Positions 9,433-61,527 of a DNA stretch of 64,000 nt are shown one piece after another; position 1 is the stretch's first letter; every line of letters starts with the position of its first letter. The notes beneath the pieces are model-generated. The model was not told the origin of the DNA. It did no database searches and saw nothing but the letters and a program-made list of their open reading frames with translations. The DNA lies in NCBI RefSeq assembly GCF_003851005.1, contig NZ_BEXT01000001.1:6246996-6310995 (forward strand). The letters run 5' to 3'. This stretch comes from Desulfonema ishimotonii (lineage in GTDB: Bacteria; Desulfobacterota; Desulfobacteria; Desulfobacterales; Desulfococcaceae). Both the position numbers and the translations under genes were made by a program.

Positions 9433-9594
9433 GGGAATTTCGTAAGACTGCCCATGCCATCTGATGGCAGGGCGGGGTTACATCCACGCCGAAACGGTGT
9501 TCCCCCCAAATTTTCCCCATGTTACAAATCAGCGGTCATATCCGACGGGGCCGTAACCCCGTCCTACCGTTTTGAAGCGGGTCGTTTATTTCTG
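9424..9594 (+). repeat. Family C palindromic element, copy 1: GGCGGGGTTACGTCCCCGCC hairpin, ~60 bp conserved core, then inverted hairpin GACGGGG(C)CGTAACCCCGTC.
   Basis: Shares more than 80% identity with copies at 15000-15165 and 19503-19648. It begins in the last codons and stop of the upstream gene (AGCGGTAAGGGAATTTC). Confidence 0.7.
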
Positions 9595-9889
9595 CTGAAC
9601 TCCCTGATTCCGCCTTTCCGGGGAGCGCCGGATCAATTCTGCTTGACACCCTGTGATCTGTTTCCTACACTTCCGCCAGATACCGTTCGGGGTGGCCGGA
9701 AAGACCGGCCTGAGATGATACCCGCCGAACCTGATCCGGGTCATGCCGGCGCAGGGAAACAGAGAAGGGCCGCATACAAAGCAGCCCCGTGGCGTATCAC
9801 TGACGCCAGGCCGTTCCCCTGTGGAAACGGCTTTTTTTGTCAGGAAATTTTATGAGTGGGCCGTCAATTAAGTTTCCTGACATAAAACC

Positions 9890-11625: not shown

Positions 11626-11733
11626 CATCGTTCCGACGCTCTGCGTCGGAATGCCCGACCGGACGCTCCGCGTCCCGTCACACGACGCGGGAGCGTCGGG
11701 GGCACCCGTTCCAACGCAGAGCGTTGGAACGAT
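11626..11733. repeat. Family B palindromic repeat (CGTTCCAACGCTCTGCGTTGGAACG-type units).
   Basis: Hairpin units ATCGTTCCGACGCTCTGCGTCGGAATG ... GTTCCAACGCAGAGCGTTGGAACGAT. The same family occurs in 3-4 units at 33108-33357. Confidence 0.65.
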
Positions 11734-15007: not shown

Positions 15008-15165
15008 GGAATTTCTGCAAAATAAAACTACCCCCGCCATCTGACGGCAGGGCGGGGTTACGTCCCCGCCGAACTGCTGAATTTTCCTGACGCTGCAAAT
15101 CGGCGGTCATATCCGACGGGGACGTAACCCCGTCCTGCCGTTTTGAAACGGGTAATTGATTTGTG
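15000..15165 (+). repeat. Family C palindromic element, copy 2.
   Basis: Starts within the last codons and stop of the LysE gene (AGCGGTAAGGAATTTC), then CCATCTGACGGCAGGGCGGGGTTACGTCCCCGCC ... GACGGGGACGTAACCCCGTCCTGCCGTTTTGAAACGGG. Confidence 0.7.
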
Positions 15166-15209
15166 ATGAACTTTCTAAAAGATATCCCCCTCAACAGAAA
15201 GCCACGTCC

Positions 15210-19502: not shown

Positions 19503-19648
19503 CCATGGGACCGGTAGGGCGGGGTTACGTCCCCGCCGAAACGGTGCCCATCGCCGCTTGAATTTTCCAGACGTTACAAATCAGCGGTCATATCTGACGG
19601 GGACGTAACCCCGTCCTGCCGTCCTGAAAGGGGTAGTTTATTTATTCC
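19503..19648 (+). repeat. Family C palindromic element, copy 3.
   Basis: Begins about 30 nt after the ADP-ribosylglycohydrolase stop. GGGCGGGGTTACGTCCCCGCCGAAACGGTG...CAAATCAGCGGTCATATCTGACGGGGACGTAACCCCGTCCTGCCGT. Confidence 0.7.
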
Positions 19649-19656
19649 GAACGCCC

Positions 19657-21297
19657 TTACCTGTTTTGCATTACCCGGTTCAGCGTCTCCTCAAGTTCAC
19701 GGATATTGTAGGGTTTTTCAATGACCCCGCAAAAGCCGTGCTTCCTGAATCCGGTCATTTCCGGATCATTGGAATAGCCGCTGGAAACGATTCCCCGAAC
19801 GTCCGGATCGAGCTTCAGCAGCTCCCGGATGGCCTGACGGGCCCCCATGCCTGTTGTGACGTTCAGGTCAAGAATGACCACGTCAAAGGGGGTGCCGGAC
19901 GCCAGGGCCGTCTGATACCGGTCAATCGCCTCAGCCCCGTCCCCGGAGAGCCCGACCGTATAGCCGAGGGCCGTCAGCATCTGTCCGGCCACCGCCCTGA
20001 CGATCTTTTCGTCATCCATGATCAGCACCCGGCCCCTGGGCGTCACACGCCGGGGGCTGTGTTTTGCAGAAAGGCGTTTATCCGCTTCCGCAGCATCTGC
20101 TGCGGGCAGCCAGAGGGTGACCGTTGTCCGGTCCCCCTGTTTTGACACCACGTCAATATCGCCCCGGTGGTGCCGGACAATGGCGTAAATTTCCGCGAAA
20201 TCGAGACCCATGCCCCGCCCCCGCCCGTCTTTCAGGGAGACGTAGGGATCAAAGATCTGCCCCAGGTACTCTTCCGGGATACCGGCCCCCCGGTCTCTGA
20301 CCGTGATTCTGACATATCTGCCCGGGGGAACTTCCGTCTGCATTTCCGGGGAAATCACCATGTTCTCTGCGGAAATCTCAATGGTGTCGCCCGCATGCAT
20401 GGCGGCAGCGCTGTTTCGGATGAGACCGGTGAGGGCCTGCATCATCTGTTCCTCATCAAAGATTACCGGCCAGAGATCCACCGGTGCGGAAACCGCACAG
20501 CGAACGCCCGGTGTCTCCGGCGCGACACCGGCGGCCCTGCGAAGGGTGTCGGCCACAGAGCGGAGACGCATATCCGGTGGGACGGTATTGGCGATGCGGT
20601 TCAGCCGACCGATAAAGGCCCGGATCTTTTCACACCCGGCCCTGGCGGCGGACAGGCGCTTAAAGGCGTTGTTCCGGGCGGGAATGTCCCCGAAGGCCAG
20701 GTCGATGTTGCCGATGACGGGGGTGAACATGTTGTTCAGATCGTCTACGATACCGGCGGCCAGCGTTTCCAGAAACTGAAATTTCCGGGCGATCAGTTGC
20801 TTTTCCGCCCGCTGTTTCCGCCCGCTGATATCCCGTGCGAAAAAGAGGATTTCAGACGGCGCGCCGCCCGGGGGAAGGGCAATGGCGTTCACTTCGACCG
20901 GAATCAGGGCCAGCTCCCGGTTGATGAAATGAAATTCATGCAGCCGGATTTCCCCGGAACCGCTTCCGGGGGCATCAAAGAGTCTGGCCCGGATGGTTTC
21001 CAGCTCATCCGGGGGCAGGATATCGGCGATGTTCATCCCCGTCAGTTCCGCCTCGAGGTATCCGGTAATGCCGAGCCCCCCCTGATTGGCAAATGTGATC
21101 TGGCCGTCCATGTCAAATCTGAGGATAATTTCATGGGCCGCGTCAATCATGGCCCGATACGAACCCTCAGCGGCATCGGCCCGCCTTCCAGCCGGTTCGG
21201 TCGGTTTTTCCCGGTTTTCCTCTCCGTTTTGCATATGGAAATTCTCTCTGGTCTGGGGGTTGCGGTTTCCGGACTCCCGTCTTTGCAGGGCGGGCAA
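19657..21297 (-). CDS. Hybrid sensor histidine kinase (PAS - HisKA - HATPase_c - REC). The H-box phospho-acceptor His is replaced by Asp (..AAGIVDDLNNM..).
   Basis: PAS segment, an intact G-box (GRGMGLDF) and a C-terminal receiver (VLIMDDEK...VVILDLNV). The codon at 20743-20745 (GAC on the coding strand) sits at the conserved AHDFNN histidine position. Confidence 0.75.
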   Translation of the reverse strand: MPALQRRESGNRNPQTRENFHMQNGEENREKPTEPAGRRADAAEGSYRAMIDAAHEIILRFDMDGQITFANQGGLGITGYLEAELTGMNIADILPPDELETIRARLFDAPGSGSGEIRLHEFHFINRELALIPVEVNAIALPPGGAPSEILFFARDISGRKQRAEKQLIARKFQFLETLAAGIVDDLNNMFTPVIGNIDLAFGDIPARNNAFKRLSAARAGCEKIRAFIGRLNRIANTVPPDMRLRSVADTLRRAAGVAPETPGVRCAVSAPVDLWPVIFDEEQMMQALTGLIRNSAAAMHAGDTIEISAENMVISPEMQTEVPPGRYVRITVRDRGAGIPEEYLGQIFDPYVSLKDGRGRGMGLDFAEIYAIVRHHRGDIDVVSKQGDRTTVTLWLPAADAAEADKRLSAKHSPRRVTPRGRVLIMDDEKIVRAVAGQMLTALGYTVGLSGDGAEAIDRYQTALASGTPFDVVILDLNVTTGMGARQAIRELLKLDPDVRGIVSSGYSNDPEMTGFRKHGFCGVIEKPYNIRELEETLNRVMQNR

Positions 21298-25007: not shown

Positions 25008-26035
25008 TTATTCCGCCTCGTCAATCCTGTTGACGCCCTCCATCAGCAGCCACATGAAATCCCCGATCGGCTCCTGATCCCTGTGCGTCTCGCACTGGCC
25101 GTGCATGAACTTAAACCGTCCCCGGTTTTCCCTGAGAATCTGAAAAAAGGCGTCCCTGTCTGTCAGTTTTCTGTATCGGGCGTGGATAATCTCCCCGTCT
25201 CTGAAACAGACCCGGGCCGTCCCCTCTCTCAGCTCCAGAACCAGAACGCCGGTTTTAAGGTTGCTGTTGAGGGTCTGGAAAAGCTCTGACGGGGGCATTT
25301 CGCTCAGCCGGCCGATCATGCCCGATGAAAACTCCTCAGCCCTGGCGAGGTTGATATTGGTCAGCCGACGGGTCAGAAGCCGGGTGAAATACATCTGGAG
25401 GGCGGCATACTTATTGAGCATCTGCCTGAAATCCCTGGCGCTGATATATAAAATGCCGGACGGTTTCACAGCCCGGACATCCGCCCCGGTGGGATCTCCG
25501 CTGAGCAGGCTCATCTCGCCGAAAACCTCCCCCGGCTTTAAGAGGGCAATGCGGAGCCGGTCATTCCCCAGCACCTCCACCTTTCCCGAAGCGACGATGT
25601 AGAAGTTCCGGCCATACTCCCCCGCCGGATAATCATCTCCCCGGCATCGTATTTTTTCAGCCGGACCAGCCGGACCACCTCCCCAACCTGATCCCCTTCC
25701 AGGCTGCGGAAGAACTCAAATCTGTTCAGCAGCCCGGTGATGGTTGCCAGCTCCGCATCCGACTTCCTGGGCGGCGGCAGGGTAAAAGAGAGATCGCGCC
25801 GATATTCGAGCCGGACCCGTCCGGTACAGCCGCTGCAACGGAACTGCCCTTTGGAGCCGAGCCCCGGCGTTCCGAAAAGATCGGTGATATCTTTGACCAG
25901 GATCAGGCAGACCGCCTTGTCCGGGGGCATCAGGAGGGCGGTGCCGCATACGTTGAACTCATCGCCCAGCTTGTACATCGGGCAATTGTTTTCCTCTGTG
26001 ATGTCGATAATGGTATCCGGAAAATTCATTGGCAT
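25008..26035 (-). pseudogene. Paralog of the downstream 26067-27134 gene (Cys-rich N-domain + cNMP-binding + DUF4388-like C-domain), split by a -1 frameshift in a G5/C5 run at about 25618-25623.
   Basis: The two track ORFs (25538-26035 and 25008-25580) align end-to-end with the intact paralog (..EMIIRRG | EYGRNFYIVASGKVEVLGND..). Adding one G restores the frame. Confidence 0.6.
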
Positions 26036-26066: not shown

Positions 26067-27134
26067 TTATGTAACATGGTCCTCATCCATTCTTCTGATC
26101 CCCTCCATTAAAAGCCACATAAATTCGCCCATCTCCGGGGCACCGGCCTCTTCGGGCGACAGGTTCGGGCTGAACCGGAACCGCCCCTCTTTCGCTTTCA
26201 GAATTTCAAAAAAGGCATCGGGTCCGTTTTTTCCTTTATATTCGGCCCATACCGGCTCACCCTGCCTGAAACAGACCCGCGCGTTGCCCCCGGACAGTGC
26301 CAGGTCGGCCCCGCCGGTCTTCTGGTTGACGTTCAGGGTCTGAAACAGCTCGGAGGGCGGGACTTCGGAGAGCTTCCCGGCCATCCCGGAGGAGAAATCT
26401 TCAGACCGGGCCATGTTGGTGGCCGCGAGCCGCTGGGCCAGCAACCGGGCAAAGTACATCTGGAGGGTGGGATACCGGCTCAGAATTTTCCCGAAATCCC
26501 GTCCCTTCATGTATAACAGGCGGACCGGTTCGACAACCTTTATTGTCGCGCCCACCGGCTCCCCGCTGATAAGACTCATCTCTCCGAACACCTCCCCCCT
26601 GCCCAGCCAGGCAATGCGCATGGCATCATCGCCGATCACCTCCACCTTTCCGGCGGCGATGATGAAGAGGTTGACCCCCGGCGTGCCCTTTTTGATGATC
26701 ACCGTTCCCCTGGGAAGCTGGCTGTATTTCAGATATCGGCCCAGGTCTCTGAGCTGCCCGTCGTCCAGCCCCTGAAAGATGGGGAAACGGGCCAGCACGT
26801 TAATAATCGCCCTGATTTTTTCGGCCTTTTCCCCGTCCGCCGGCAGGGCTGCGGTATCGGGGGGCAGCCGGTATTCCATGCGGATCGACCCTGTGCAGTC
26901 TGTCACCGGGCCGCTGCAGTTAAATTGGTACACCGGACAATTGTTCTGCCGGATGTCCTCTGTATAGCGCCCCGTGGTCAGGGCTGTTTTAATATCTTCC
27001 GCAAGGACCATGCAGGCCGGTTTGCCGGGGGGAAGGGTCAGGACGCGGCCTGACAGCCTGAACGCATCGCCCGCTTTATATATGGGGCAGTGGTTATCCT
27101 TAATGATTTCCAGTATCGTGTCCGGCATATTCAT
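26067..27134 (-). CDS. Signal-transduction protein: N-terminal Cys-rich domain (HCPIY...NNCPVYQFNCSG...DCTG), cyclic-nucleotide-binding domain and a C-terminal DUF4388-like domain.
   Basis: cNMP-binding signature GEVFGEMSLISGEPVGATIKVVEPVRLLYM; C-terminal PPSELFQTLNVNQKTG...VCFRQGEPVWAEY. RBS GAAGGAG lies 6 nt before the ATG at 27134. Confidence 0.7.
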   Translation of the reverse strand: MNMPDTILEIIKDNHCPIYKAGDAFRLSGRVLTLPPGKPACMVLAEDIKTALTTGRYTEDIRQNNCPVYQFNCSGPVTDCTGSIRMEYRLPPDTAALPADGEKAEKIRAIINVLARFPIFQGLDDGQLRDLGRYLKYSQLPRGTVIIKKGTPGVNLFIIAAGKVEVIGDDAMRIAWLGRGEVFGEMSLISGEPVGATIKVVEPVRLLYMKGRDFGKILSRYPTLQMYFARLLAQRLAATNMARSEDFSSGMAGKLSEVPPSELFQTLNVNQKTGGADLALSGGNARVCFRQGEPVWAEYKGKNGPDAFFEILKAKEGRFRFSPNLSPEEAGAPEMGEFMWLLMEGIRRMDEDHVT

Positions 27135-27353
27135 TGTTTTCTCCTTCACATTCGGAAAGTTCCTGAACCTTAGCCGTTTCTGATGTCACCGTCACGGGGA
27201 TATGCACGGCAATGGTATTCCGGTGAACCGGGTAAGATGCGGCATTTTCGGAAGGTTTATAATACATTTTACCCGTCTGAATCCACGAAAGATTGTACAA
27301 AATTCGGGGACCGGGGTCAAACAGATACACATCGGCGCGTCCCCGGCGGTCCG

Positions 27354-28623: not shown

Positions 28624-28640
28624 TTCGGAATTTTTCCGAA
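28624..28640. promoter_or_regulatory. Perfect palindrome TTCGGAA-TTT-TTCCGAA, candidate operator about 35 nt upstream of the rubredoxin-array gene start.
   Basis: 7-3-7 inverted repeat in an AT-rich promoter region between 28450 and 28674. Confidence 0.35.
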
Positions 28641-28673
28641 TTTTAACCCCACAAAATGTTCAGGAGAATATGT

Positions 28674-29873
28674 ATGCGGAAATGGAAATGTACGGTGTGT
28701 GGCTACATCCACACCGGAAACGAACCGCCGGAAAAATGCCCGGTCTGCGGCGCGGATAAAAGCCTCTTTGAGCCGGTTGGCGAAAGCGCTGAGGCAGCGG
28801 CGCAGGCCGGGACTGAAACCGCTGCAAAGTGGCGATGCACGGTGTGCGGCTACATCCACACCGGAAACGAACCGCCGGAAAAATGCCCGGTCTGCGGCGC
28901 GGATAAAAGCCTCTTTGAGCCGGTTGGCGAAAGCGCTGAGGCAGCGGCGCAGGCCGGGACTGAAACCGCTGCAAAGTGGCGATGCACAGTGTGCGGCTAC
29001 ATCCACACCGGAAACGAACCGCCGGAAAAATGCCCGGTCTGCGGCGCGGATAAAAGCCTCTTTGAGCCGGTTGGCGAAAGCGCTGAGGCAGCGGCGCAGG
29101 CCGGGACTGAAACCGCTGCAAAGTGGCGCTGCACAGTGTGCGGCTACATCCACACCGGCGACGAGCCGCCGGACAAATGCCCGGTCTGCGGCGCGGATAA
29201 AAGCCTCTTTGAGCCGATGGCTGAGACTGCCGCTGAAACAGAATCGCCTGCCGGAACCGAATCCGTCGCAAAGTGGCGCTGCACGGTGTGCGGCTACATC
29301 CACACCGGCGACGAGCCGCCGAAAAAATGCCCGGTCTGCGGCGCGGACAAAAGCCTCTTCGAGGCGCTCTCCGAAACCGCCGCGCCTGAAAAGTCCGCAG
29401 ACGCGGAAACCGCACCCCGTTCCTCCCGTGGCCGGATATATGACATGCTCATTGAGCAGATGCTGAAGCATCACGCCCATCCCGTCTCGGTCCATATTCC
29501 CAACGGGGTGATCCCCATGAACGTTCTGTTTATTCTCATGGCCCTGCTGTTTCACATGGGCAGCCTTGAACTGGCCGCCTTCTGCAACACGGTCTTTGTT
29601 GTGCTGACCATGCCGTTTATCGTGTTCTCCGGGTATATCGAGTGGCAGAAGCGGTATGGCGGGCATCTGACGAACATTTTCGTTATCAAGATTCTCTGTG
29701 CCACGGTGGTGGCGGCGTCGGCTGTCGGGATCATGATCTGGTGGATCATTGATCCGAACGTGGCGGACGCCACCTCGCCCAACCGGTGGCTTTTTTTTCT
29801 GGTCAACCTGATGATGCTGGGGGCCGCAGCCGTTGCCGGGTTTATCGGCGGAAGATTTGTTTTCAAGGATTAA
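28674..29873 (+). CDS. Protein with five tandem rubredoxin domains (W[RK][10 protein letters not shown][ND]EPP[EDK][13 protein letters not shown]) joined by Ala/Glu/Thr-rich linkers and fused to a C-terminal ~4-TM membrane domain.
   Basis: Five CxxCG...CPxCG rubredoxin knuckle pairs. The C-terminal 150 aa are hydrophobic with conserved His ([11 protein letters not shown]). RBS AGGAG lies 6 nt before the ATG at 28674. Confidence 0.8.
28683..29417 (+). repeat. Tandem 147-bp coding repeats (5 units), one per rubredoxin domain. Units 2 and 3 differ by a single nucleotide.
   Basis: Unit boundaries are at about 28830, 28977, 29124 and 29271. Units 1-3 are near-identical; units 4-5 have diverged (GDEPPDKC and GDEPPKKC). 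Confidence 0.8.
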
Positions 29874-30286
29874 TTCCACGTTGTCAGATTAACTAAATCA
29901 GAGGGCAGGCCCCTGTGCCTGCCCTCCGGTTCCCGGAGCCGCCGTTTCCCGCCAATCGGGCGTTTCACAGTCGAAAATCCCAGAAAAGCCTTATGTGGCA
30001 AGGGTTTGCATAATTTTTTGTGGAAAAACGTTCGGATGAAATAAATGTTTTTATTTTGAAAATCAGAGTATTGAATCATAATCATGAAAATGTGTTAAGA
30101 TTGCATTCGAATGCGATTTTGTCCGCTCATATTTTTCGGACCTGAAGTATAAAAAGTGGTAATCTGACCTTCACCCCATATTAAATTTGATCGAAACTGA
30201 TGGGTTTCAAAGACAGTTCAGGCTAAGGATCTTCGGAACCGGCAGGCACCCGGAGCAGATTTCCGAACATAAAAAAAGGAGAACCG

Positions 30287-30898
30287 ATGCTTGATTTTTT
30301 TCAGGAGGCCATATCGCCCTTAAACCTTCCATTTACGATTTTACTGGGCCTGATGATCCTCTACTGGCTGGTCGTCATCATGGGCGCTGCCGATGCGGAC
30401 TGGATGCCCGATCTCGACCTGGATGCCGATGACGGTGGGGGACTCCTCGCCTCTTTTTTTCAGTTCCTCAGCCTTGGCGACGTGCCGGTCACGGTGGTCG
30501 TAAGCGTCATGATTTTCAGCGCCTGGTGTTTTTCCATGCTGGCCAACCACTTTCTGAACCCCGGCGGTTCGATTTTTATCGGCACCACCCTCCTCTTTAT
30601 CAATATGCTGCTGGGGCTTTTTGCCACAGCCCTTTTTACCCGCGTCATGCTCAGGATTTTCGGACCGCTGCACGGCGAGGACACGGAGGATCAGCAAATC
30701 CTCTATCGGGTCGGCACGGTTATCACCAGCCGGGTGGATGCGGACTTCGGTCAGGTGGAGATCGAAACCAAAGGCGCGCCCATTACCGTCAACGCCCGCG
30801 CTGTGGATGACAGAATTTTTACGAAAGGGGAGAAGGTGCTGATATTTGACGAAGATGAGGAGAAAGGGATCTTCTTTGTGGATAAATACGAGGCATAA
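30287..30898 (+). CDS. NfeD-like / YqiJ-family (DUF1449) inner-membrane protein with a C-terminal OB-fold; partner of the downstream flotillin.
   Basis: N-terminal TM segments, an acidic loop (DLDLDADDGGG) and C-terminal GTVITSRVDADFGQVEIETKGAPITVNARAV...GEKVLIF resembling the NfeD beta-barrel. Preceded by an AT-rich region with a GCATTCGAATGC palindrome (30103-30114). Confidence 0.65.
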   Translation: MLDFFQEAISPLNLPFTILLGLMILYWLVVIMGAADADWMPDLDLDADDGGGLLASFFQFLSLGDVPVTVVVSVMIFSAWCFSMLANHFLNPGGSIFIGTTLLFINMLLGLFATALFTRVMLRIFGPLHGEDTEDQQILYRVGTVITSRVDADFGQVEIETKGAPITVNARAVDDRIFTKGEKVLIFDEDEEKGIFFVDKYEA

Positions 30899-30947
30899 CC
30901 CGGCGTCTTTCCCGAAAAACGGACATAAAAAATAACGGAGGTGACCG

Positions 30948-33053
30948 ATGGAGCTTCTCGCAGGACTGGGGTTTACAGGAATTGTTGTCTTATTTGTCAT
31001 CGGCCTCGGCTTTATTACGCTGCTGGCCAAATTTTACCGCAAGGTCGAACAGGGACACGCCCTGGTGCGCAACGGCATCGGCGGCACAAAGGTGAGCTTT
31101 TCCGGCACAGTGGTCGTTCCGATTCTTCACAAGGCTGAAGAGATGGATATCTCCGTCAAGCGGGTTATCATCGACCGCCACGGCAGCGAGGGGCTGATCT
31201 GCCGGGACAATATGCGGGCGGATATCAAGGTCGTCTTTTTCGTCCGGGTCAACAAGACCTCCCAGGATGTCCTCAAGGTGGCCCAGGCCGTCGGCTGCGA
31301 ACGGGCCTCCCATCCCAAGGCGCTTCAGGAGCTGTTTGAGGCCAAGTTTTCCGAAGCCCTCAAGACCGTGGGCAAGCAGTTTGAGTTTGTGGAACTGTAT
31401 AACTCCCGCGAACAGTTCAAGGAAGAGATGCTCAAGGTGATCGGCACTGACCTGAACGGCTTTGTCATGGACGATGCTGCCATCGACTATCTGGAACAGA
31501 CGCCCCTTGAGATGCTCAACGCCGACAATATTCTCGATTCACAGGGCATCAAAAAGATCACCGAACTCACGTCCGACCAGAAAATCCTGGCCAATAAAAT
31601 TGACCGGGACCGGGAAAAAACCATTACCCGCCAGGATGTGGAGGCCAAAGAGGCGGTGCTGGAGCTGAACCGCCAGCTGGCCGAGGCTGAAAGCCGTCAG
31701 AAACGGGAAGTGGAGATCATTCAGGCCCGCGAGACGGCTGAAACCGTCAAGGTTCAGCAGGAGGAGCGTCTCAAGGCCGAATCTGCGCGGATTTCCTCGG
31801 AAGAGGAGATTCAGGTGGCCGAAGAGAACAAGGATCGTCAGATCATCGTGGCCCGCAAGAACAAGGAACGCACCGATGCCATTGAATCCGAGCGCCTGGA
31901 AAAAGACCGGATGATCGAGGCCACCGAGCGGGAGCGGATTGTGGCCCTGACCCAGATCGAAAAGAACAAGGCCATCGAGGTGGAGCGGAAGAACATTCAG
32001 GATGTGATCCGCGAACGGGTCAAGGTGGAAAAGACGGTAGTGGAGGAACAGCAGCGCATCAAAGACACCGAGGCCTTTGCCGAGGCCGATCGGGAAAAAC
32101 GGGTCGCCATCACCCAGGCGGAAAAGTCGGCAGAGGAGACAGAGGTCGTAAAGGTCAAGGGGGCCGAGGCCGCCCGGCAGGTGGCGGCCCTGAAGGCCGA
32201 AGAGGATATGCTCCGCACGGTAAAGGATGCCGAAGCCGCCCAGAAGGCATCGGATTTCAAGGCCCGGCAGGCCGAGATTGAGGCCGGGGCGTTTTTCCAC
32301 AAGGCGGAAAAGGAGGCGGCCGCCAAGAAGATGCTGGCCGAGGCCGATGCGGCGGAAAAGGCAGCCCAGGGCATGAGCGATGTCCAGGTGATGGAGGCGC
32401 GGGCGGCGGCCATTGAAAAAGAGGGCGCGGCCCAGTCCAAGGTCATGGATCTGAAATATCAGGCCGAATCCGGCGGGATTGAGAAAAAGGGCACGGCCGA
32501 GGCCAAGGTACAGTCCCTGAAATTCCAGGCGGAGGCCAAGGGCATTGAGCAGAAGGCCAACGCCATGAAACTGCTGGACGGCGTGGGACGCGAACATGAG
32601 GAGTTCAAGCTGCGGCTCCATAAGGAAAAGGATGTGGAAATTGCCGAAATCCGGAACCGGGGGGAAGTGGCCCGGTATCAGGCCGACATTCTGGCCCAGG
32701 CCCTCAGATCGGCCAAAATCGATATTGTGGGCGGCGAGGCCACCTTCTTTGACCGGATCGTCAACGCCATCAGCACCGGCAAGGCCGTGGACCGGTATGT
32801 GGATAACAGCAAAACCCTGACCGACGTGAAAGAGACCTTTTTCAATTCCGACCCGGAGTATTTTCAGTCCCAGCTGAAGCACTTTTTCAAGCAGTTCGGC
32901 ATCACGTCGGAAGATGTGAAAAACCTCACGGTGTCGGCGGTGCTGGGGCAACTTGTCTCCCTGGCGGACAAACCCGAGGACCGGAGTGCCCTGTACGAGC
33001 TTTTGTCCATGGCCGAACGGTCCGGCATGGCCAAAAAGGTGCTGGGGAAATAG
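30948..33053 (+). CDS. Flotillin-family SPFH/band-7 protein (YqiK/FloT-like) with an N-terminal TM helix and a long Glu/Ala/Lys-rich coiled coil.
   Basis: SPFH core (GHALVRNGIGGTKVSF...VRVNKTSQDVLKVAQAVG) followed by ~300 aa of heptad-like EA/KA-rich sequence; 701 aa. Confidence 0.85.
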   Translation: MELLAGLGFTGIVVLFVIGLGFITLLAKFYRKVEQGHALVRNGIGGTKVSFSGTVVVPILHKAEEMDISVKRVIIDRHGSEGLICRDNMRADIKVVFFVRVNKTSQDVLKVAQAVGCERASHPKALQELFEAKFSEALKTVGKQFEFVELYNSREQFKEEMLKVIGTDLNGFVMDDAAIDYLEQTPLEMLNADNILDSQGIKKITELTSDQKILANKIDRDREKTITRQDVEAKEAVLELNRQLAEAESRQKREVEIIQARETAETVKVQQEERLKAESARISSEEEIQVAEENKDRQIIVARKNKERTDAIESERLEKDRMIEATERERIVALTQIEKNKAIEVERKNIQDVIRERVKVEKTVVEEQQRIKDTEAFAEADREKRVAITQAEKSAEETEVVKVKGAEAARQVAALKAEEDMLRTVKDAEAAQKASDFKARQAEIEAGAFFHKAEKEAAAKKMLAEADAAEKAAQGMSDVQVMEARAAAIEKEGAAQSKVMDLKYQAESGGIEKKGTAEAKVQSLKFQAEAKGIEQKANAMKLLDGVGREHEEFKLRLHKEKDVEIAEIRNRGEVARYQADILAQALRSAKIDIVGGEATFFDRIVNAISTGKAVDRYVDNSKTLTDVKETFFNSDPEYFQSQLKHFFKQFGITSEDVKNLTVSAVLGQLVSLADKPEDRSALYELLSMAERSGMAKKVLGK

Positions 33054-33063
33054 GATGCGGTAG

Positions 33064-33089
33064 GGTGGGCACGTCTTTTTGTGCCCACC
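33064..33089 (+). terminator. Hairpin GGTGGGCAC-GTCTTTTT-GTGCCCACC immediately after the flotillin stop; possible terminator or attenuator.
   Basis: 9-bp perfect stem with a T-rich loop and no clear downstream U-tract. Confidence 0.3.
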
Positions 33090-33107
33090 GATTCCCGGCA
33101 TCTTCAA

Positions 33108-33357
33108 ATTGCGCATCGTTCCAACGCTCTGCGTTGGAATGTCCGACCGGACGCTCTGCATCCCGTCACGCGACGCAGGAGCGTCGGAACGATGAATAAA
33201 TCTCAGCGCCGGTGTAGCAGCAGATCGGGTTGGCGAAGCGTAACCCGACATCGTTCCAACGCTCTGCGTTGGAATGCCTGACCGGACGCTCTGCGTCCCG
33301 TCACGCGACGCGGGAGCGTCGGAGTTACTCGTTCCAACGCAGAGCGTTGGAACGATG
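33108..33357. repeat. Family B palindromic repeats, 3-4 tandem hairpin units (GTTCCAACGCTCTGCGTTGGAAC / GACGCTCCCGCGTCGCGTGACGGGACGCAGAGCGTC).
   Basis: Same units as at 11626-11733. They occupy the intergenic space between the flotillin gene and the giant ORF. Confidence 0.7.
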
Positions 33358-33495
33358 AAATGAAACAGCAGGGGGGCACAGAAGCGTGTGCCCCCCTGCC
33401 TGGCTGATTCAATCCTAAAACGGATGTTGCATACTTTTTATGAAGATTGTTTGCCATCATCCATCTGACGGCAAAAAAGAGGAGGAGATTGTCCC

Positions 33496-36400
33496 ATGGC
33501 TCAAACGGAACACTCCGCTGAGAAAACCGGGGCGGACGCCACGCTGGAAGGCGGAACCTATGAGATCATACGCAACCGTCTGCTGAATCACGGCAAGGCC
33601 CTGCGGGAACGGCTGGAAAAACTGGACGGGTCGCGCAGGGAAATCTTCGGGGCCATTGAACAGACCCTGCTCGCCACCGAGCGGATCACCACCCGCCACA
33701 ACTGCGTGCCCCGTGACATGGTCTCCGTTAACGGAACCCGTTTCGTATTCGGCTATAACGTTCACATGGGCCTCAAGACCGAAATTCAGATTTCGGATGT
33801 CTTTTCGGTCTACCAATACAAAGAGCGCCAGTTCCGCCAGTTGCCCTGGGAGGTGCTTGACTCCGGGCGCTTTGAGGAAGACCTGAAAAATCTTTATAAA
33901 TATTACAAAGATACGCGGTTTATCAAATTTTCGGTGATCGGGCCGCACCTCTACATGGTTTTCCGGGTGAGCAAATCCTCCAGGGATATCAAGGCCTTCA
34001 AATGGCTGATTCAGGACAGCACCCTGACCTATATGGACAACCGGAGCGACCATGAGGTCCGGTTTCCGGGGCAGCACGATTTTGAGTGGACCCGCACCAC
34101 CCGTGACGATCACAGGCCCGGCAGTCATCCCCATGTCTCCGTCCGGGACCGGGTGTTTGTGGAAACCGTGGGCGGCGATATCACCTTCAAGGTGGAGGAC
34201 AACACCGAGATCGGCCAGGGGATTTACGCCGAACCGGTGGAAAATCCGGATCAGACTCTGGACGACGCCGAGATCGCCTATGCCGTGATGGGCCACATCA
34301 TCCTGGTCAGAATCCGGCCTTACCAGGAGGCGCGATTCCGCTATTTCATCTACAATGACAAGACCCGGACGGTCTGCCGGGCCGATGATATGGAACAGGC
34401 CTGCGTACAACTGCCCGACGATCAGGGCCTGATCTTCTCCAACGGCTACTATCTTGAGAGCGGTGAACTCCGGCGGTTTGAAAGCGGCATGCGCGACATG
34501 ATGTTTGAGAGCCGCATTGCCTCCCCCAACGGCGAGGATTTTCTCTATGTGTTTTATGATCAGGAATCGGGGAATTATGCCCTGCTCTCCTACAACCTGA
34601 TCCGCCAGCAGGTGGAAACGCCCCTGCCGTGCAACGGTTTTTCCCTCTTCGACTCCGGCGAGATGATCCTGTTCCGGGCCGACCGGGAGCCGGTCCGTCA
34701 TCATGTGATCCAGGTCTGGCAGACGCCCTACATGAGCGGAGAGCACGCCTTTGCCGAGAAGAGCGACGCCTTTCTCTACAAGGTGGGCAACCCGGATATC
34801 GTGCGCTGCATGGCCGAATGCAACACCCTGATCCGCCTGATCAACCGCGAAGACCTCTATGCCGCGCTTTACGTGGATATGGTCAAAAAGGCCAGGGATA
34901 TCGCGGATGCGTATTTCTGGATCGACAACCCGGAGGCCTTCAATCTCAGAGAAGTGCTGTCGGAGATTCGGAAGGCCGCCTCCGGGGCTGTGGACGAGTT
35001 TGAAAAGGTCGTCCGGTTGAAGAAAAGTACGGCCGATGCCGTGGCCCGCGTGACCGACCGGTCCCGCGAGATCCTTGACCGGGCCGCGCCGGAGTACATG
35101 GAGAGCATCGACGATTTCGTCAGGGGCCTGGCCGCGCTGCGGGGGGTGCGGGGAGAAATCATCTCCCTCGGCGAGCTGCGCCATGTGGATACGGAGGCCG
35201 TGGCGCGTCTGGACCGGGAGGTCTCCGAAGCGGTGGACAGAATGTCCGGCCTCTGCGTGGAATTTCTTCTGAAGCCGGAGGCCCTTGGGCCATATGAGGC
35301 CCGCGTGGCCGAGGCCGGAGAGCAGGTGGAATCGCTGAGCCGGGTCACGGACGCCAGTGCGCTTCAGGAAAAAACGGAAGCGGCATCGGAGGCGCTGGAG
35401 ATGCTCATCGAAATCGTGAGCAACCTGAAGATCGAAGATGCGACCCAGACCACGCGGATTATCGACAACATCTCGGCCATCTATTCCCGGCTCAATCAGG
35501 TTCGGGCCGCGCTGAAAAATAAGAAGAAGCGCCTGCAAAGCATCGAAGGCGTGGCCCAGTTCAACGCACAGATGAAGCTCCTCAGCCAGAGCGTGATCAA
35601 CTATATCGACATTTGTGACACGCCGGAAAAGTGCGACGAATACCTCACCAAAATCATGATTTCGGTGGAGGAGCTGGAGGGCCGGTTTGCCGACTTTGAC
35701 GAGTTCATCGGGCAGATCTCCGAAAAACGGGACGAGGTTTACGCCGCCTTTGAATCGAAAAAACTGGCCCTGGCCGAGGCCCGTAACCGGCGGGCCACCG
35801 CACTCATGGACGCGGCGGAGCGCATCCTCAGAGGCGTACAAAACCGGGTGGCGACCCTGGAGGAGGTCAGCGCCATCAACGCCTATTTCGCCTCGGACCT
35901 GATGATCGAAAAGGTCCGGGATATCGTGACACAGCTTCTGGAGATCAGCGACACGGTCAAAGCCGATGACATTCAGTCCCGCCTCAAAACCATCCGTGAG
36001 GACACGGTCCGGCAGCTGAAAGACCGCAAAGAGCTGTACGCGGAGGGTGAGAACATTATCCGGTTCGGGAACCACAGTTTTTCCGTCAACACCCAGCCCC
36101 TGGACCTGACAATGGTGCTGCGGGACGGCGTCCGGATGTTTCATCTCACCGGCACCGATTTTTTTGAGCCGGTGGCCGACGCGGCCTTCGAGGCCACCAG
36201 ACCGGTCTGGGACATGGCGGTGATTTCAGAGGACAAAACCGTATACCGGGGCGAATATCTCGCCTTTCAGATGCTCCGGGCCTTTGAAGCGGAGGACGGG
36301 GAGACGCGCACCCGCTTCGGGGCGTTTTCGGATGCGGAGTGGGAGGAACACACCCGGACCTTCATGGGCCAGCGCTATGCCGAGGGATATGTCAAAGGGG

Positions 36401-39021
36401 TCCACGACCGGGACGCCGCAAAGTTATGCAGCGCCCTGGTCGCCATGCACGGCAAAATCGGCCTGCTGCGCTTCTCCCCCCGTGCCCGCGCGCTGGCCCG
36501 GCTCTTCTGGCACATCTACTTTCAGGCGTGGTCGGATGAAACCGCCCGGAACCTGATGGCCGACAAGCTGGCGGCCTTCGGGGCCATGACCCAGATCTTT
36601 CCCGGACCGGGGCAACAGGAAAATTATGTGGCAGAGCTGGAGACGATGCTCGCCGATTTTGCGGAAAAGGTTCCGCTCTTCCCGGATGCGCCCGTGCCGG
36701 AGGCGGCCCGCTACCTCTTCTGCGAGCTGAGCGGCTTTGAGACCGATGCCGGGGATGAGTTTGTGATCAGCACGGGGGCCTGGGCGGTGGCCGAGGGGCT
36801 GCTCAGCCATCTCCGGGCGGAAGGGTGTGCCGAATCGCTGGAAAAGGCGCGGGAAAAGGTGGCCCGGATTCCGGCCTCCGAGTTTGAGCTGGTGCGGGAC
36901 TGGGTGGCCGGATACGCCGCCACCCTGCCTGCGGAAAAGGATCTGAGCGACTATGTTGACGAGGCGTCCGTGCTGATCTTCACCCGGAACGCCCGGCGCA
37001 TGAACATGCCGGAGGTCTCCGTCTCTGCGGATATTGAGGGCATGGCCGGGGATCATCCGGTGATCCGGGAGGGCCGGTATCATCTCAACTACAACCGGTT
37101 TTCGGAAAAGCTCTCCTGGTACGAGGGGAACGTGGTCCCCCGGTTCAGGGAATATACGGCCCTCAGAAAGCAACTGACCGATGAGATGCGGGAGACGCTG
37201 CGGCTGTCGGAATTCAAACCCCGCGTGCTGACCTCCTTTGTCCGAAACAGGCTCATCGACCAGGTCTACCTGCCCCTTGTGGGCGACAATCTCGCCAAGC
37301 AGATCGGCGTGGCCGGGGAGGGCAAGCGCACCGACCGCATGGGGATGCTGCTGCTCATCTCGCCGCCCGGCTACGGCAAGACCACCCTGATGGAGTATAT
37401 CTCCAACCGGCTGGGCATTATTTTTATGAAGATCAACGGCCCGGCCATCGGATATCAGGTCACCTCCCTCGACCCGGCAGAGGCCCCCAATGCCAGCGCC
37501 CGCGAGGAGGTGGAAAAAATCAGTCTCGCCCTGGAGATGGGCGACAACGTGATGATCTATCTCGACGATATCCAGCACTGCAACCCGGAACTGCTGCAAA
37601 AATTCATCTCCCTCTGCGATGCCCAGCGCAAAATCGAAGGGGTGTACAAGGGGCGGACCCGGACCTATGACCTGCGGGGCAAAAAGGTGGCCGTGGTCAT
37701 GGCCGGGAACCCCTATACCGAAAGCGGCGAAAAGTTCAGAATCCCCGATATGCTCGCCAACCGGGCCGACACTTACAATCTGGGCGACATCATCGGCGAC
37801 ACGGCAGAGGCCTTTAAGCTGAGCTATCTGGAGAACGCCCTCACCTCCAATCCGGTACTCAGTCCCCTGACCAGCCGGAGCCGGAAGGATATCCACAGCA
37901 TCATGAGGATCGCCGAATCCGGGGACCGCGAGGGGATCGAGTTTGACGGCAACTATTCGGCCGAGGAGCTGAACGAGATGGTGTCGGTGATGGAAAAGCT
38001 GATCACCGTGCGCGAGGTGATTCTCAGGGTGAACCTGGAATATATCCGCTCCGCAGCCCAGGCCGACGAATACCGCACCGAACCGCCCTTCCGGTTGCAG
38101 GGGTCGTACCGGAACATGAACCGCCTTGCCGAAAGGATCGTGCCCATCATGAACCCGGAGGAGGTGAAGACCCTGCTCCTGTCCCATTATGAAAATGAGG
38201 CGCAGACCCTGACCACCGGGGCCGAGGCCAACCTGCTCAAATTTAAAAAACTGACCGGGTGGATGGACGCTGCCGAAACGGCGCGGTGGGCGGAGATCTG
38301 CCGGATGTTTAAAAAGAATCAGTTGCTCCGGGGCATGGATGATCGTGATCCGGTCACGCAGGTGGTGGGGCAGTTGTCGGCCTTTTATGACGGGCTGGAG
38401 GGCATCCGGGGGGTGCTGGCATCCGCCATGAAACAGACCGACCGGGGCATGACGCGGATCGCCTTTGCCGAGGAAACCCTGGGGCAGTTGGCGGGGCTGG
38501 TGTCGGCGGTCAGAGCGGTGGCCGCTTCATCCGCCAAAGCGGAGAAAGAGGAGACGCCCGCCGATCCGGTGCTGCCCCCGAAACTGGAGGTGGTGAACCG
38601 GATGCCCGACGGATATCTGGAACTGGTGAAGGCCCAGTTTGAAATGATGGACGCCTGGATGGAGCCAACGTTCAAGGCCACCCGGCAGCAGGCCGGGGTA
38701 CTTCAGAAACTGGGGCAGGAGATCGGAAATCTCAAGGCGGTCTATCAGGAGATCATCCATGCCCGGCAGGAGGGGGGCTGGCAGGATATCGAGAAGTTCG
38801 ACGTGGCGCTCAGGGTCAATCCCAAGGACCACAAGTCCTATTACAAGCGCGGGCTGGCGTGGTACAATAAAAACAAGGTCAGCCGGGCGCTGAGCGATTT
38901 CAAAAACGCCCTCGATCTTCAGCCCAAAAACAAAAAATACCAGCGGATCGTGGCCCATCTGGAGGCGGAGCTGACCACCGATAAGGGAGAGGGAGAGAAT
39001 TACAAATCGACGATCTGGTAG
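33496..39021 (+). CDS. Giant 1841-aa multidomain protein of unknown function. It has a beta-rich N-terminal ~470 aa, a long alpha-helical/coiled-coil middle, a MoxR/McrB/dynein-like AAA+ P-loop module (Walker A ISPPGYGKTT, Walker B VMIYLDDIQH, sensor-1 AGNPY) at about aa 1280-1450, and C-terminal helical repeats ending in TPR.
   Basis: Single uninterrupted ORF with RBS AGGAGG 9 nt upstream. Walker A is at nt ~37369-37386 and Walker B at ~37555-37580. TPR-like KSYYKRGLAWYNKNKVSRALSDFKNALDLQP lies at the C-terminus. Confidence 0.85.
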   Translation: MAQTEHSAEKTGADATLEGGTYEIIRNRLLNHGKALRERLEKLDGSRREIFGAIEQTLLATERITTRHNCVPRDMVSVNGTRFVFGYNVHMGLKTEIQISDVFSVYQYKERQFRQLPWEVLDSGRFEEDLKNLYKYYKDTRFIKFSVIGPHLYMVFRVSKSSRDIKAFKWLIQDSTLTYMDNRSDHEVRFPGQHDFEWTRTTRDDHRPGSHPHVSVRDRVFVETVGGDITFKVEDNTEIGQGIYAEPVENPDQTLDDAEIAYAVMGHIILVRIRPYQEARFRYFIYNDKTRTVCRADDMEQACVQLPDDQGLIFSNGYYLESGELRRFESGMRDMMFESRIASPNGEDFLYVFYDQESGNYALLSYNLIRQQVETPLPCNGFSLFDSGEMILFRADREPVRHHVIQVWQTPYMSGEHAFAEKSDAFLYKVGNPDIVRCMAECNTLIRLINREDLYAALYVDMVKKARDIADAYFWIDNPEAFNLREVLSEIRKAASGAVDEFEKVVRLKKSTADAVARVTDRSREILDRAAPEYMESIDDFVRGLAALRGVRGEIISLGELRHVDTEAVARLDREVSEAVDRMSGLCVEFLLKPEALGPYEARVAEAGEQVESLSRVTDASALQEKTEAASEALEMLIEIVSNLKIEDATQTTRIIDNISAIYSRLNQVRAALKNKKKRLQSIEGVAQFNAQMKLLSQSVINYIDICDTPEKCDEYLTKIMISVEELEGRFADFDEFIGQISEKRDEVYAAFESKKLALAEARNRRATALMDAAERILRGVQNRVATLEEVSAINAYFASDLMIEKVRDIVTQLLEISDTVKADDIQSRLKTIREDTVRQLKDRKELYAEGENIIRFGNHSFSVNTQPLDLTMVLRDGVRMFHLTGTDFFEPVADAAFEATRPVWDMAVISEDKTVYRGEYLAFQMLRAFEAEDGETRTRFGAFSDAEWEEHTRTFMGQRYAEGYVKGVHDRDAAKLCSALVAMHGKIGLLRFSPRARALARLFWHIYFQAWSDETARNLMADKLAAFGAMTQIFPGPGQQENYVAELETMLADFAEKVPLFPDAPVPEAARYLFCELSGFETDAGDEFVISTGAWAVAEGLLSHLRAEGCAESLEKAREKVARIPASEFELVRDWVAGYAATLPAEKDLSDYVDEASVLIFTRNARRMNMPEVSVSADIEGMAGDHPVIREGRYHLNYNRFSEKLSWYEGNVVPRFREYTALRKQLTDEMRETLRLSEFKPRVLTSFVRNRLIDQVYLPLVGDNLAKQIGVAGEGKRTDRMGMLLLISPPGYGKTTLMEYISNRLGIIFMKINGPAIGYQVTSLDPAEAPNASAREEVEKISLALEMGDNVMIYLDDIQHCNPELLQKFISLCDAQRKIEGVYKGRTRTYDLRGKKVAVVMAGNPYTESGEKFRIPDMLANRADTYNLGDIIGDTAEAFKLSYLENALTSNPVLSPLTSRSRKDIHSIMRIAESGDREGIEFDGNYSAEELNEMVSVMEKLITVREVILRVNLEYIRSAAQADEYRTEPPFRLQGSYRNMNRLAERIVPIMNPEEVKTLLLSHYENEAQTLTTGAEANLLKFKKLTGWMDAAETARWAEICRMFKKNQLLRGMDDRDPVTQVVGQLSAFYDGLEGIRGVLASAMKQTDRGMTRIAFAEETLGQLAGLVSAVRAVAASSAKAEKEETPADPVLPPKLEVVNRMPDGYLELVKAQFEMMDAWMEPTFKATRQQAGVLQKLGQEIGNLKAVYQEIIHARQEGGWQDIEKFDVALRVNPKDHKSYYKRGLAWYNKNKVSRALSDFKNALDLQPKNKKYQRIVAHLEAELTTDKGEGENYKSTIW

Positions 39022-39043: not shown

Positions 39044-39180
39044 GACGACAGGGCGGGGCCACATTCCCGCCGAAAACTGCCGCCTCCCCCGAAAGCGCCG
39101 CCGTGGAAGGCGGCACTACCGTCATGTCGGAAACCGACGGTAGCGCGGGGTTCCATCCCCGCGAAAACGGCTATTTCCCC
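39044..39180 (+). repeat. Family C palindromic element, divergent copy 4, directly after the giant ORF stop.
   Basis: GACAGGGCGGGGCCACATTCCCGCCGAAAAC ... GACGGTAGCGCGGGGTTCCATCCCCGCGAAAACGG. It keeps the paired-hairpin architecture at the same ~25-nt spacing from the stop as the other copies. Confidence 0.55.
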
Positions 39181-42515: not shown

Positions 42516-42580
42516 CGACACCGGAACTTCATTCCGCCAATTCGAGCAAGGGACGTTGAAAAAATAAGAATACCGATATC

Positions 42581-42625
42581 CGTCAACGGTAGGACGGGGT
42601 TACGCCCCCGTCAGCGCTGTCGGCA
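42581..42625. repeat. Family C element fragment (single hairpin arm).
   Basis: GGTAGGACGGGGTTACGCCCCCGTCAGCG matches the terminal hairpin of family C. Confidence 0.4.
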
Positions 42626-42667
42626 GGTTCGACATCCCTGATGGCGAATCTCATCTGTGATTCAGTA

Positions 42668-58986: not shown

Positions 58987-59053
58987 TCATACCCCCCTAA
59001 AACTCTGTTTTGTGCGACAGGCGGCATATCATCCGACGCCTGCCTCTATTCAT

Positions 59054-60715: not shown

Positions 60716-61251
60716 CCGTCTTCTCCGTTATAATTGACAAGTCGTGCCCGGCTGATCTCTTGAAAAGGAACCTGGACTGTCTGCCCTTCAACGATAATCC
60801 CAATCCGCCCGTCTGAAACATCGGCCAGCGGACCCTTGAATTTTTTCTTCCCGCTGATGGGCGTTATGGTTCTGATTTCTGCCATGTGACCTTGAAATTT
60901 TATAAAATCAGATTCTCTGGCTAACGGGCGATCCGGCCCGGGCGAGGAGACTTCAAGATGATAGGCTTCTCTGAGATCCATGCTCACATCCAGAATATCT
61001 CCCATCTGGCGGCTGACAGAAACACAATTATCCAGCGTCACCCCGCCGGGTCTGTCAATGTAAATTCTCATGATCCGCCCACGCGCTTCCTGCTGATATT
61101 CCACATGAACCAGTTCCAGCCCATCTGTCTCACACAGGGGTTCGGCCAGATTCCTGACCCGGTCTGCGATCTTTCTATCCCTTTCGGGAGAACATTTCCG
61201 GGGACTGACACCCCTTTTTTCGGAGTCCGATTTTCTTCTTTTTTTGCTCAT
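60709..61251 (-). CDS. rimP: Ribosome maturation factor RimP, with an N-terminal Lys/Arg-rich extension.
   Basis: ..GLELVHVEYQQEARGRIMRIYIDRPGGVTLDNCVSVSRQMGDILD..HLEVSSPG..; 180 aa against about 150 typical. Confidence 0.8.
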   Translation of the reverse strand: MSKKRRKSDSEKRGVSPRKCSPERDRKIADRVRNLAEPLCETDGLELVHVEYQQEARGRIMRIYIDRPGGVTLDNCVSVSRQMGDILDVSMDLREAYHLEVSSPGPDRPLARESDFIKFQGHMAEIRTITPISGKKKFKGPLADVSDGRIGIIVEGQTVQVPFQEISRARLVNYNGEDGC

Positions 61252-61451
61252 TTGCCTTTACATCCACGTCTCAGACAATAAAAAAACGGGCTGCCGCCCG
61301 TTTTATGCCAATGTAGACCTTTTATTTTTAGTGGATGTCGAAAAAATTAATTGTTCATAATCTGCGCATAAGAAAAAAACATGTCCGAACCACAATCCCC
61401 TGATAAAAGGCCTACCTCTTATCTGTAACCAAAAGGCGGACTTATCAAAAT

Positions 61452-61527
61452 GGAGCGGGCAACGAGATTCGAACTCGCGACACCAAGCTTGGGAAGCTTG
61501 TACTCTACCAGCTGAGCTATGCCCGCT
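61452..61527 (-). tRNA. tRNA-Gly (anticodon CCC), 76 nt with an encoded CCA.
   Basis: Reverse complement reads GCGGGCATAGCTCAGCTGGTAGAGTACAAGCTTCCCAAGCTTGGTGTCGCGAGTTCGAATCTCGTTGCCCGCTCCA. It has a 7-bp acceptor stem, a D-arm, anticodon loop TTCCCAA, T-loop TTCGAAT and discriminator U. Confidence 0.9.

Follow-up and report, generated by a model that had tools for sequence, protein, structure and literature searches.

A 64,000-nucleotide (nt) stretch of the Desulfonema ishimotonii genome (hereafter the window) contains three consecutive open reading frames (ORFs) on the + strand, at positions 30287-30898, 30948-33053 and 33496-39021, coding for proteins of 203, 701 and 1841 amino acids (aa) respectively. 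The first product is a YqiJ-type NfeD-like inner-membrane protein, the second a YqiK/FloT-type SPFH (flotillin-like) scaffold protein, and the third a giant cytoplasmic AAA+ ATPase with matches to DUF3686, DUF7902, an AAA family and tetratricopeptide repeats (TPR). A protein of the same species named 'AAA family ATPase' matches the giant ORF with 100% identity. A preliminary description made from the sequence gave the coordinates of these same-strand ORFs exactly, and proposed that they form an undescribed membrane-microdomain-associated system. The nfeD and flotillin genes are co-directional and separated by 49 nt, with a median gap of ~4 nt in 57 orthologous loci; a spacer of 443 nt (33054-33495), compared to a median of ~130 nt in orthologous loci, lies between the flotillin gene and the giant gene.

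The order of these genes is conserved across bacteria. Homologues of the giant protein are numerous (>4500 with E<1e-10), and a one-genome-per-species scan recovered at least 594 relatives, of which 80 loci from other species were kept and all of their ORFs clustered to find conserved neighbors. Of the 60 loci with sufficient upstream DNA, 57 have a flotillin gene immediately 5' of the giant gene in the same orientation, and an NfeD-like gene is upstream of the flotillin gene in 52 of the 55 informative loci; no conserved neighbor beyond the three genes emerges from the clustering. Loci with the trio are found in Planctomycetota, Verrucomicrobiota, Bacteroidota, Myxococcota (Polyangia) and Calditrichota (Calditrichia), and the order is retained in distant copies with 37-42% identity on the Pseudomonas fluorescens plasmid pQBR103, a Streptomyces linear plasmid and the Proteus mirabilis chromosome. 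Pairwise distances among the giant proteins correlate with those among their flotillins (Pearson 0.88, Spearman 0.54, Mantel p 0.001). The association is also seen from the other direction: when the C-terminal 157 aa of the flotillin are used as the seed, nearly all homologue matches are gene fragments and four contexts are therefore available, and all four of these long contigs, picked via this domain alone, have a DUF3686 gene immediately downstream. This conserved co-occurrence, in at least five phyla, supports the proposal in the preliminary description that the trio is functionally linked and associated with a membrane scaffold, and decisively counters the possibility it had raised that the flotillin pair and the large gene never co-occur in related genomes. 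The trio is very probably a conserved functional set, of a type that has been published (see below).

Individual loci vary in their surroundings. In the Pontibacter virosus locus (L070, 6584-7916) the flotillin and giant genes are separated by two insertions, a DMP19-like gene (PF14300, a family of DNA-mimic proteins) and an ORF of 186 aa, and the other five Pontibacter loci (L071, L072, L073, L079 and L080) likewise have enlarged flotillin-giant gaps of 646-1470 nt. The Proteus mirabilis locus (L083, NZ_OL790812.1) is in a 4.09-Mb PLSDB 'plasmid' record that is evidently a chromosome, and the trio adjoins a divergent LemA and TPM-domain pair, which is a further membrane-associated module. A blastn search of 5,426 E. 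coli genomes with 1.6 kb of Proteus DNA as the query detected no homologue of the conserved AAA+/C-terminal segment of the giant protein. Among the giant genes found without partners, L061 adjoins a CHASE2-adenylate cyclase gene and atpI/atpB, and L003, at 68% identity, is the closest relative with testable upstream DNA.

The NfeD-like protein is of the YqiJ type, with three transmembrane segments and an OB-like tail. A transmembrane scan places the hydrophobic segments at residues ~11-38, 57-88 and 93-125, with an Asp-rich loop between the first and second, and a C-terminal beta-rich OB-like domain occupies residues ~140-200. The window protein matches Pfam YqiJ_N only weakly (E 0.006), but the family to which it belongs does so more convincingly; YqiJ_N matches 18 of the 28 operon orthologues (best E 5.9e-7), the NfeD C-terminal domain matches 2 of the 28, and alignment of the family profile to E. 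coli YqiJ with hhalign gives a probability of 96.8% (E 2.9e-10) over 176 columns. The top Protein Data Bank (PDB) profile match is the OB domain of Bacillus subtilis YuaF (2K14; residues 140-197, E 0.12). Alignment of 30287-30895 with 27 orthologues shows that the Asp-rich (DxDxD...) loop is highly variable in length, from ~10 to more than 60 residues, and it is predicted to be cytoplasmic. This loop may bind cations or polyamines, a role suggested because polyamine genes adjoin related PspA operons.

The 701-aa protein is a YqiK/FloT-type SPFH protein with the bulk of its chain in the cytoplasm. Its single transmembrane segment is an N-terminal anchor (residues 1-31; nt 30948-31040), followed by a Band_7/SPFH domain (32-172; nt 31041-31463), a coiled coil rich in Glu, Ala and Lys (~205-560; nt 31560-32627) and a conserved C-terminal domain (561-701; nt 32628-33050). 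A Pfam scan with the full-length protein gives no match, because the long coiled coil suppresses it; the N-terminal 244 aa match Band_7 (PF01145) at E 2e-10, above the gathering score. There is 29% identity to E. coli YqiK over 421 aa spanning the transmembrane segment, SPFH domain and coiled coil (E 8e-43), and the flotillin profile matches the coiled-coil wall of QmcA (E 9.5e-5). The operon family conserves the last ~280 aa, although these do not align to YqiK. There is no match to a separate Pfam 'Flot' domain, and the sole flotillin-family profile match is to NCBIfam FloT, at E 9e-5 and 21.7 bits, which is far below the 700-bit cut-off. The NfeD and flotillin labels of the preliminary description are supported at the family level, although with the full-length proteins the Pfam matches are weak or absent.

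The giant protein has no transmembrane segment, with a maximum 19-residue Kyte-Doolittle score of 1.24, and matches DUF3686 (E 3e-187, residues 36-474), DUF7902 (E 8e-28, 595-678), AAA_5 (E 6e-6, 1285-1409) and TPR (1765-1818) in Pfam. DUF3686 is found solely at the N-terminus of proteins of 1600-1930 aa; the domain has 766 clusters at 50% identity, the shorter entries being fragments. Two AlphaFold2 models built from 42 homologues span the entire chain, with mean predicted local distance difference test scores of 85.7 and 76.6. In these models a long helix (residues 19-51; nt 33550-33648) precedes a beta domain of ~28 strands (57-409; nt 33664-34722) that is consistent with a divergent beta-propeller-like fold of seven blades. 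The predicted helical scaffold that follows (426-1163; nt 34771-36984) is composed of spectrin-like or coiled-coil bundles (426-847), which include DUF7902, a small beta domain of five strands (854-892) and, C-terminal to it, an all-alpha domain (918-1163). The AAA+ module (~1240-1480; nt 37213-37935) is modeled with a beta-hairpin insert ahead of sensor 1 (1379-1392) and a lid domain after it. The C-terminal region (1489-1828; nt 37960-38979) comprises a conserved helical domain (1489-1640), a weakly conserved linker (1641-1759) and the TPR tail (1760-1828). Motifs, Pfam and the models together bear out the layout proposed in the preliminary description, namely a beta-rich N-terminus, a long helical middle, a single AAA+ module and C-terminal TPR, and no function as a known housekeeping factor was found for the protein, an outcome which that description had considered.

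Identity of the giant protein across phyla is 52-68% over ~1,650 residues (~88-99% of the protein), and the ATPase core is the best-conserved part, with ~90% column identity. Its motifs include Walker A (GPPGYGKTT, 1289-1297, with GYGKTT at 1292-1297), a Walker B YLDD with D1357 and D1358 (LDDIQH, 1356-1361), the sensor-1 asparagine N1405 within AGNPY (1403-1407), and a conserved arginine, R1423, within NRAD. Walker A, the Asp-Asp Walker B, the sensor-1 Asn and the downstream Arg are invariant in the 42 homologues, and the module has no conserved aromatic pore loop. The Asp-Asp rather than Asp-Glu Walker B, together with the absent pore loop, hints at a slow, switch-like or remodeling ATPase and not a processive unfoldase. 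The tail is lineage-variable, with TPR here, ankyrin repeats in some relatives and neither in most; in Pfam searches of homologues, TPR is present in P0005, P0006 and P0012, and ankyrin in P0007, P0008, P0010, P0011, P0013, P0014 and P0020. One homologue from the EukProt eukaryotic set (P0109; 57% identity, 1711 aa) is either contamination or a real eukaryotic gene.

Searches with the giant sequence and profile against the PDB give just TPR and generic P-loop matches, the latter covering stretches of 40-70 residues in RuvB or p97. Foldseek with the AAA+ module returns RuvB at the best E-value (6e-5; ~290 aligned columns, TM-target ~0.35), with further matches to spastin, to the MoxR proteins NorQ/CbbQ (TM-target ~0.5, the best target coverage) and to FtsH. 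The MoxR-type assignment in the preliminary description is in agreement with Pfam, the models and Foldseek, which point to the MoxR/RuvB-like kind of module with a pre-sensor-1 hairpin, and by Pfam and Foldseek the ATPase is AAA+ and not STAND, as had also been argued there. As in NorQ, CbbQ, RavA and RuvB, a beta-hairpin precedes sensor 1 and an NP...R motif follows it, and the AAA_5 match spans Walker A to sensor 1. The AAA+ proteins of MoxR systems stand alone at ~300 aa, whereas this module lies ~1290 residues into a giant protein and has no conserved VWA/MIDAS neighbor, and its likeness to NorQ/CbbQ is confined to the core fold. Unlike RuvB, the giant protein has no RuvA or DNA-binding winged helix; the Asp-Asp Walker B and identities of 12-16% set it apart from MoxR and RuvB proteins alike. 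Pfam, NCBIfam and fold searches reveal no nuclease, protease, NADase, pore or other effector domain in the giant protein.

The spacer between the flotillin and giant genes contains hairpins at 33061-33090 and, GC-rich, at 33367-33400, with 2.5 copies of a palindromic repeat between them (33114-33357: units at 33114-33188 and 33249-33323, and an inverted arm at 33332-33357). A ribosome-binding site (GGAGGAG) precedes the giant ATG at 33496. The folded spacer RNA has a predicted energy of -230 kcal/mol (z -11.9 relative to shuffled sequences). Given its enlargement relative to orthologues, the repeats represent a local insertion into an operon spacer, and these hairpins, which resemble repetitive extragenic palindromic (REP) elements, may lower read-through into the giant gene. 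The spacer elements have further copies at 11626-11733 and 3926-3964. Two GC-rich hairpin repeats are also present past the giant stop codon (39047-39172; hairpins at 39047-39080 and 39139-39172), and are distant members of a dispersed REP-like family, D6, with 71-76% identity to copies at 9466, 15046 and 19513. GC-rich palindromic families of this sort occupy unrelated spacers throughout the window (3926-3964, 9443-9657, 11626-11733, 15023-15176, 19513-19657 and 42565-42629), and no repeat is found 5' of nfeD in 29880-30286.

These observations modify the preliminary description, in which the cassette was bracketed by repeats likened to miniature inverted-repeat transposable elements (MITEs). 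The hairpin and repeat block between the flotillin and giant genes are present as described, and repeats do follow the giant gene where a 'family C' element had been placed, but with just 71-76% similarity to their relatives. There is no bracket, as a 5' repeat is missing and the families are dispersed over unrelated spacers. A MITE or composite mobile element was rejected as an explanation, since it lacks a 5' copy and both the internal and 3' repeats belong to dispersed families; the repeats are part of a dispersed genome-wide REP-like population and are not element ends.

The same set of genes has been reported by comparative genomics. Ravi et al. (bioRxiv 10.1101/2020.09.24.301986; mSystems 2024, PMC11237479) describe an operon type in which a CesT/Tir-PspA dyad accompanies three further proteins, corresponding to those here, and propose a chaperone-like or membrane-dynamics role; they also note a wider distribution for abbreviated operons that lack the dyad, which may act with PspA encoded elsewhere (PMC11237479). 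Their Table S3 includes the neighborhood of Dokdonia donghaensis ANH61663.1, which has the same order and the architecture 'Betapropeller+Coiled-coil+AAA-ATPase' (PMC11237479). The system is therefore not undescribed, as the preliminary description had it. The D. ishimotonii locus shares with the published operon a three-transmembrane YqiJ/YuaF-type protein, a flotillin-like SPFH protein and a giant protein with propeller, coiled coil and AAA+ in the same order; it differs in having neither the CesT/Tir-PspA dyad nor the phospholipase D gene of some versions, and has in addition the REP-like insertions in the flotillin-giant spacer and the TPR tail. It is an abbreviated, PspA-less form of the operon, a form to which the authors devote a single sentence, and an ordinary example that carries REP insertions. 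Tblastn with the Hymenobacter proteins, a weak test, finds neither a PspA nor a Tir homologue in the 64-kb window, and the genes upstream of the trio are unrelated to the dyad. In Hymenobacter, Roseivirga and Rufibacter, CesT/Tir and PspA/IM30 genes are directly upstream of the trio, and on a Hymenobacter plasmid the order is Tir, PspA/IM30, DUF1449, flotillin and 'DNA repair ATPase', this last being 51.6% identical to the giant protein of the window. No sigma-54 promoter, which could have indicated a PspF-type link, was found upstream of nfeD, and the whole window has fewer matches than expected by chance.

The first two genes are of the same type as the E. coli YqiJ-YqiK and B. subtilis YuaF(NfeD2)-FloT(YuaG) pairs, and, being adjacent and co-directional NfeD-family and SPFH genes, they constitute an SPFH-NfeD operon pair. 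Those pairs have no AAA+ partner gene, and E. coli yqiK is followed by the sib/ibs loci. The flotillin of the window is ~150 aa longer than YqiK, and its C-terminal domain, which is distinct and conserved, occurs together with the giant protein. Coupling of an oligomeric SPFH scaffold to an AAA+ ATPase at the membrane is a theme shared with HflK/C-FtsH and prohibitin-mAAA, although FtsH is anchored in the membrane, is a member of the classical AAA clade and includes an M41 protease, whereas the giant protein has no transmembrane segment and no protease domain, has a pre-sensor-1-hairpin AAA+ module and, unlike the HflK/C-FtsH case, is encoded in the scaffold's own operon. A membrane polymer with a dedicated remodeling ATPase is likewise analogous in logic to ESCRT-III/PspA with a Vps4-like AAA+, and a PspA neighbor is present in some Bacteroidota; the polymer of the trio is however SPFH, the ATPase clade is different, and there is no MIT domain. 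Structures of SPFH-NfeD cages have been solved for HflK/C, QmcA-YbbJ and flotillin (summarized in PMC13086221).

While the components of the trio, their topology and their co-inheritance are directly evident, its function must be judged from these properties. We consider it somewhat more probable than its negation that the three genes form one conserved operon for a membrane-scaffold machine, in which ATP drives assembly or remodeling of a flotillin/NfeD scaffold under envelope stress. Copies elsewhere that adjoin membrane-stress modules speak for this reading, namely the CesT/Tir and PspA/IM30 genes in Hymenobacter, Roseivirga and Rufibacter, the polyamine module in pQBR103 and the LemA and TPM-domain pair in Proteus. 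By analogy with the solved cages, the SPFH protein and its NfeD partner would oligomerize into a cage or microdomain at the cytoplasmic side of the inner membrane, on which the soluble giant protein would dock via its propeller and/or repeat tail, possibly at the subfamily-specific C-terminal domain of the flotillin. The giant protein would then spend ATP on assembling, remodeling, dismantling or recycling this scaffold, or the scaffold's clients, when the envelope or membrane is under stress, perhaps together with a PspA/IM30 protein whose gene lies elsewhere. In our view this specific mode of action, combining scaffold, docking and ATP-driven remodeling, has slightly less than an even chance of being correct. 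A more elaborate version can be put forward only tentatively, as its likelihood is nearer one in three: that of a self-contained ATP-powered flotillin machine, with a hexameric giant protein that uses the propeller or the repeat tail to dock, at the same C-terminal domain, on the cap at the cytoplasmic side of a YqiK-type flotillin/NfeD cage and actively loads, opens or recycles that cage.

Several observations weigh against a membrane-scaffold machine. About 5% of the giant genes (L003, L061 and L076) are solitary, with no flotillin or NfeD gene within 6-8 kb, and the giant protein can therefore persist without adjacent partners. PspA is adjacent in just ~4 of 82 loci. The AAA+ module has no close solved family, the best Foldseek E-value being 6e-5. 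Literature searches yielded no papers on DUF3686 (PF12458), and no experiment is known on any member of the giant family.

A different role for the same proteins, as a structural membrane coat or cytoskeletal scaffold, is unlikely in our estimate. The propeller and helical region would then form a protocoatomer- or spectrin-type lattice and the AAA+ module would be a mere nucleotide-gated oligomerization switch, as the Asp-Asp Walker B and the missing aromatic pore loop would allow; Foldseek with the N-terminal part of the giant protein does match propeller-plus-helical proteins (IFT-A, clathrin heavy chain, Vps18 and a nucleoporin), and the family is abundant in Planctomycetota. These coat-protein matches derive from the propeller alone, however, at 8-12% identity and high root-mean-square deviation, and the helical part consists of bundles and coiled coil and not of an alpha-solenoid. 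Phyla that lack internal membranes have the family just as often, and the conservation of the ATPase core above all other parts argues that catalysis matters. A name under which databases list the giant protein would imply instead a DNA-repair ATPase whose adjacency to flotillin is incidental or regulatory. Pfam titles DUF3686 'ATPase involved in DNA repair', and many records are named 'DNA repair ATPase'; RuvB is among the best, though weak, matches of the P-loop region by structure and sequence, and in Shewanella the spontaneous mutation rate rose when a YqiK homologue was knocked out, an effect that the authors ascribed to oxidative stress (PMC1468410). That Shewanella locus lacks a giant gene, the RuvB likeness is confined to the generic AAA+ core, and no DNA-binding, nuclease, SMC hinge/head or other nucleic-acid-related features were found, while the sole conserved partners of the giant protein are two membrane proteins. 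No paper was found that backs the name, nor did a literature search for 'DNA repair ATPase' with flotillin find anything; the name is probably wrong for the giant protein, and a repair function is highly improbable.

Anti-phage defense or abortive infection, in which flotillin and NfeD would sense perturbation of the envelope by phage and the giant AAA+ protein would act as sensor or effector, is in keeping with the patchy distribution of the trio, with plasmid-borne copies in Hymenobacter, pQBR103, Deinococcus megaplasmids and Streptomyces linear plasmids, with the variable C-terminal repeat tail, and with two of the solitary genes, L003 being beside a STAND NTPase+TPR pair and an integrase and L076 beside an AbiEii fragment. 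PADLOC nevertheless gives no significant match on the trio, where mad8 scores E 0.013 and LmuB E 7e-5 (20 bits) within the coiled coil, and the flanking ORFs match nothing but a cNMP-binding domain. Phage genomes contain no homologue of the giant protein. No effector-type domain is detected in it, and its 52-68% identity across phyla, rising to ~90% column identity for the ATPase core, sets it apart from immune proteins that diversify. The neighbors in the window are housekeeping genes, and a Symmachiella copy is surrounded by metabolic genes. We regard defense as distinctly improbable, and the suggestion in the preliminary description that the trio is accessory or defense-island cargo fails for these reasons and because the repeats are dispersed and REP-like.

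For bacteria and eukaryotes alike, the question of how flotillin/SPFH scaffolds assemble, and how they are regulated and recycled, is still open. To our knowledge no dedicated ATPase has been described for flotillins. A flotillin/NfeD pair is here coupled to a very large and highly conserved AAA+ protein in hundreds of species from many phyla, and if the tentative reading as a self-contained ATP-powered flotillin machine is true, the trio would be a bacterial equivalent, built on SPFH proteins, of ESCRT-III/Vps4 or SNARE/NSF, and the first known regulator dedicated to a flotillin that consumes energy. The operon gives direct experimental access to the way energy is used to control membrane microdomains, and to the phage-shock (PspA) network more widely, and tractable carriers exist in Proteus mirabilis, Pseudomonas fluorescens with pQBR103, Streptomyces, Pontibacter and Gimesia. 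The D. ishimotonii window contributes one more example and not a new class, as the idea was published from comparative genomics in 2020 and 2024.

The genes upstream of the trio in the window code for a sigma-54 activator, two cNMP-binding/DUF4388 proteins and a rubredoxin-repeat protein, and those downstream, on the opposite strand, for a Nudix hydrolase, YceI, MscS and menaquinone decarboxylase. The ORF directly upstream (28656-29873, + strand) encodes a Cys-rich repeat protein with rubredoxin-like zinc ribbons, in which five tandem repeats of 147 nt (49 aa) at 28640-29380 are 84-98% identical and PF21349 is matched five times. The two cNMP-binding and DUF4388 proteins (25008-25580 and 26067-27149, both on the - strand) are paralogous; PADLOC matches to 'PycTIR/Pycsar' on 26067-27149 cover the cNMP-binding domain alone and were rejected as evidence of defense. 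In pQBR103, a YjfL/DUF1190/DUF2491/GspS-like polyamine module is upstream of the trio. Elsewhere in the window, six tandem 48-nt repeats (16-aa period) at 59141-59495 are within a long ORF, either 59054-60715 on the - strand or 58742-60733 on the + strand, a tRNA-Gly(CCC) gene is at 61451-61526 (- strand), and a thiamine pyrophosphate (TPP) riboswitch (RF00059, 71 bits) is at 9678-9774 (+ strand).

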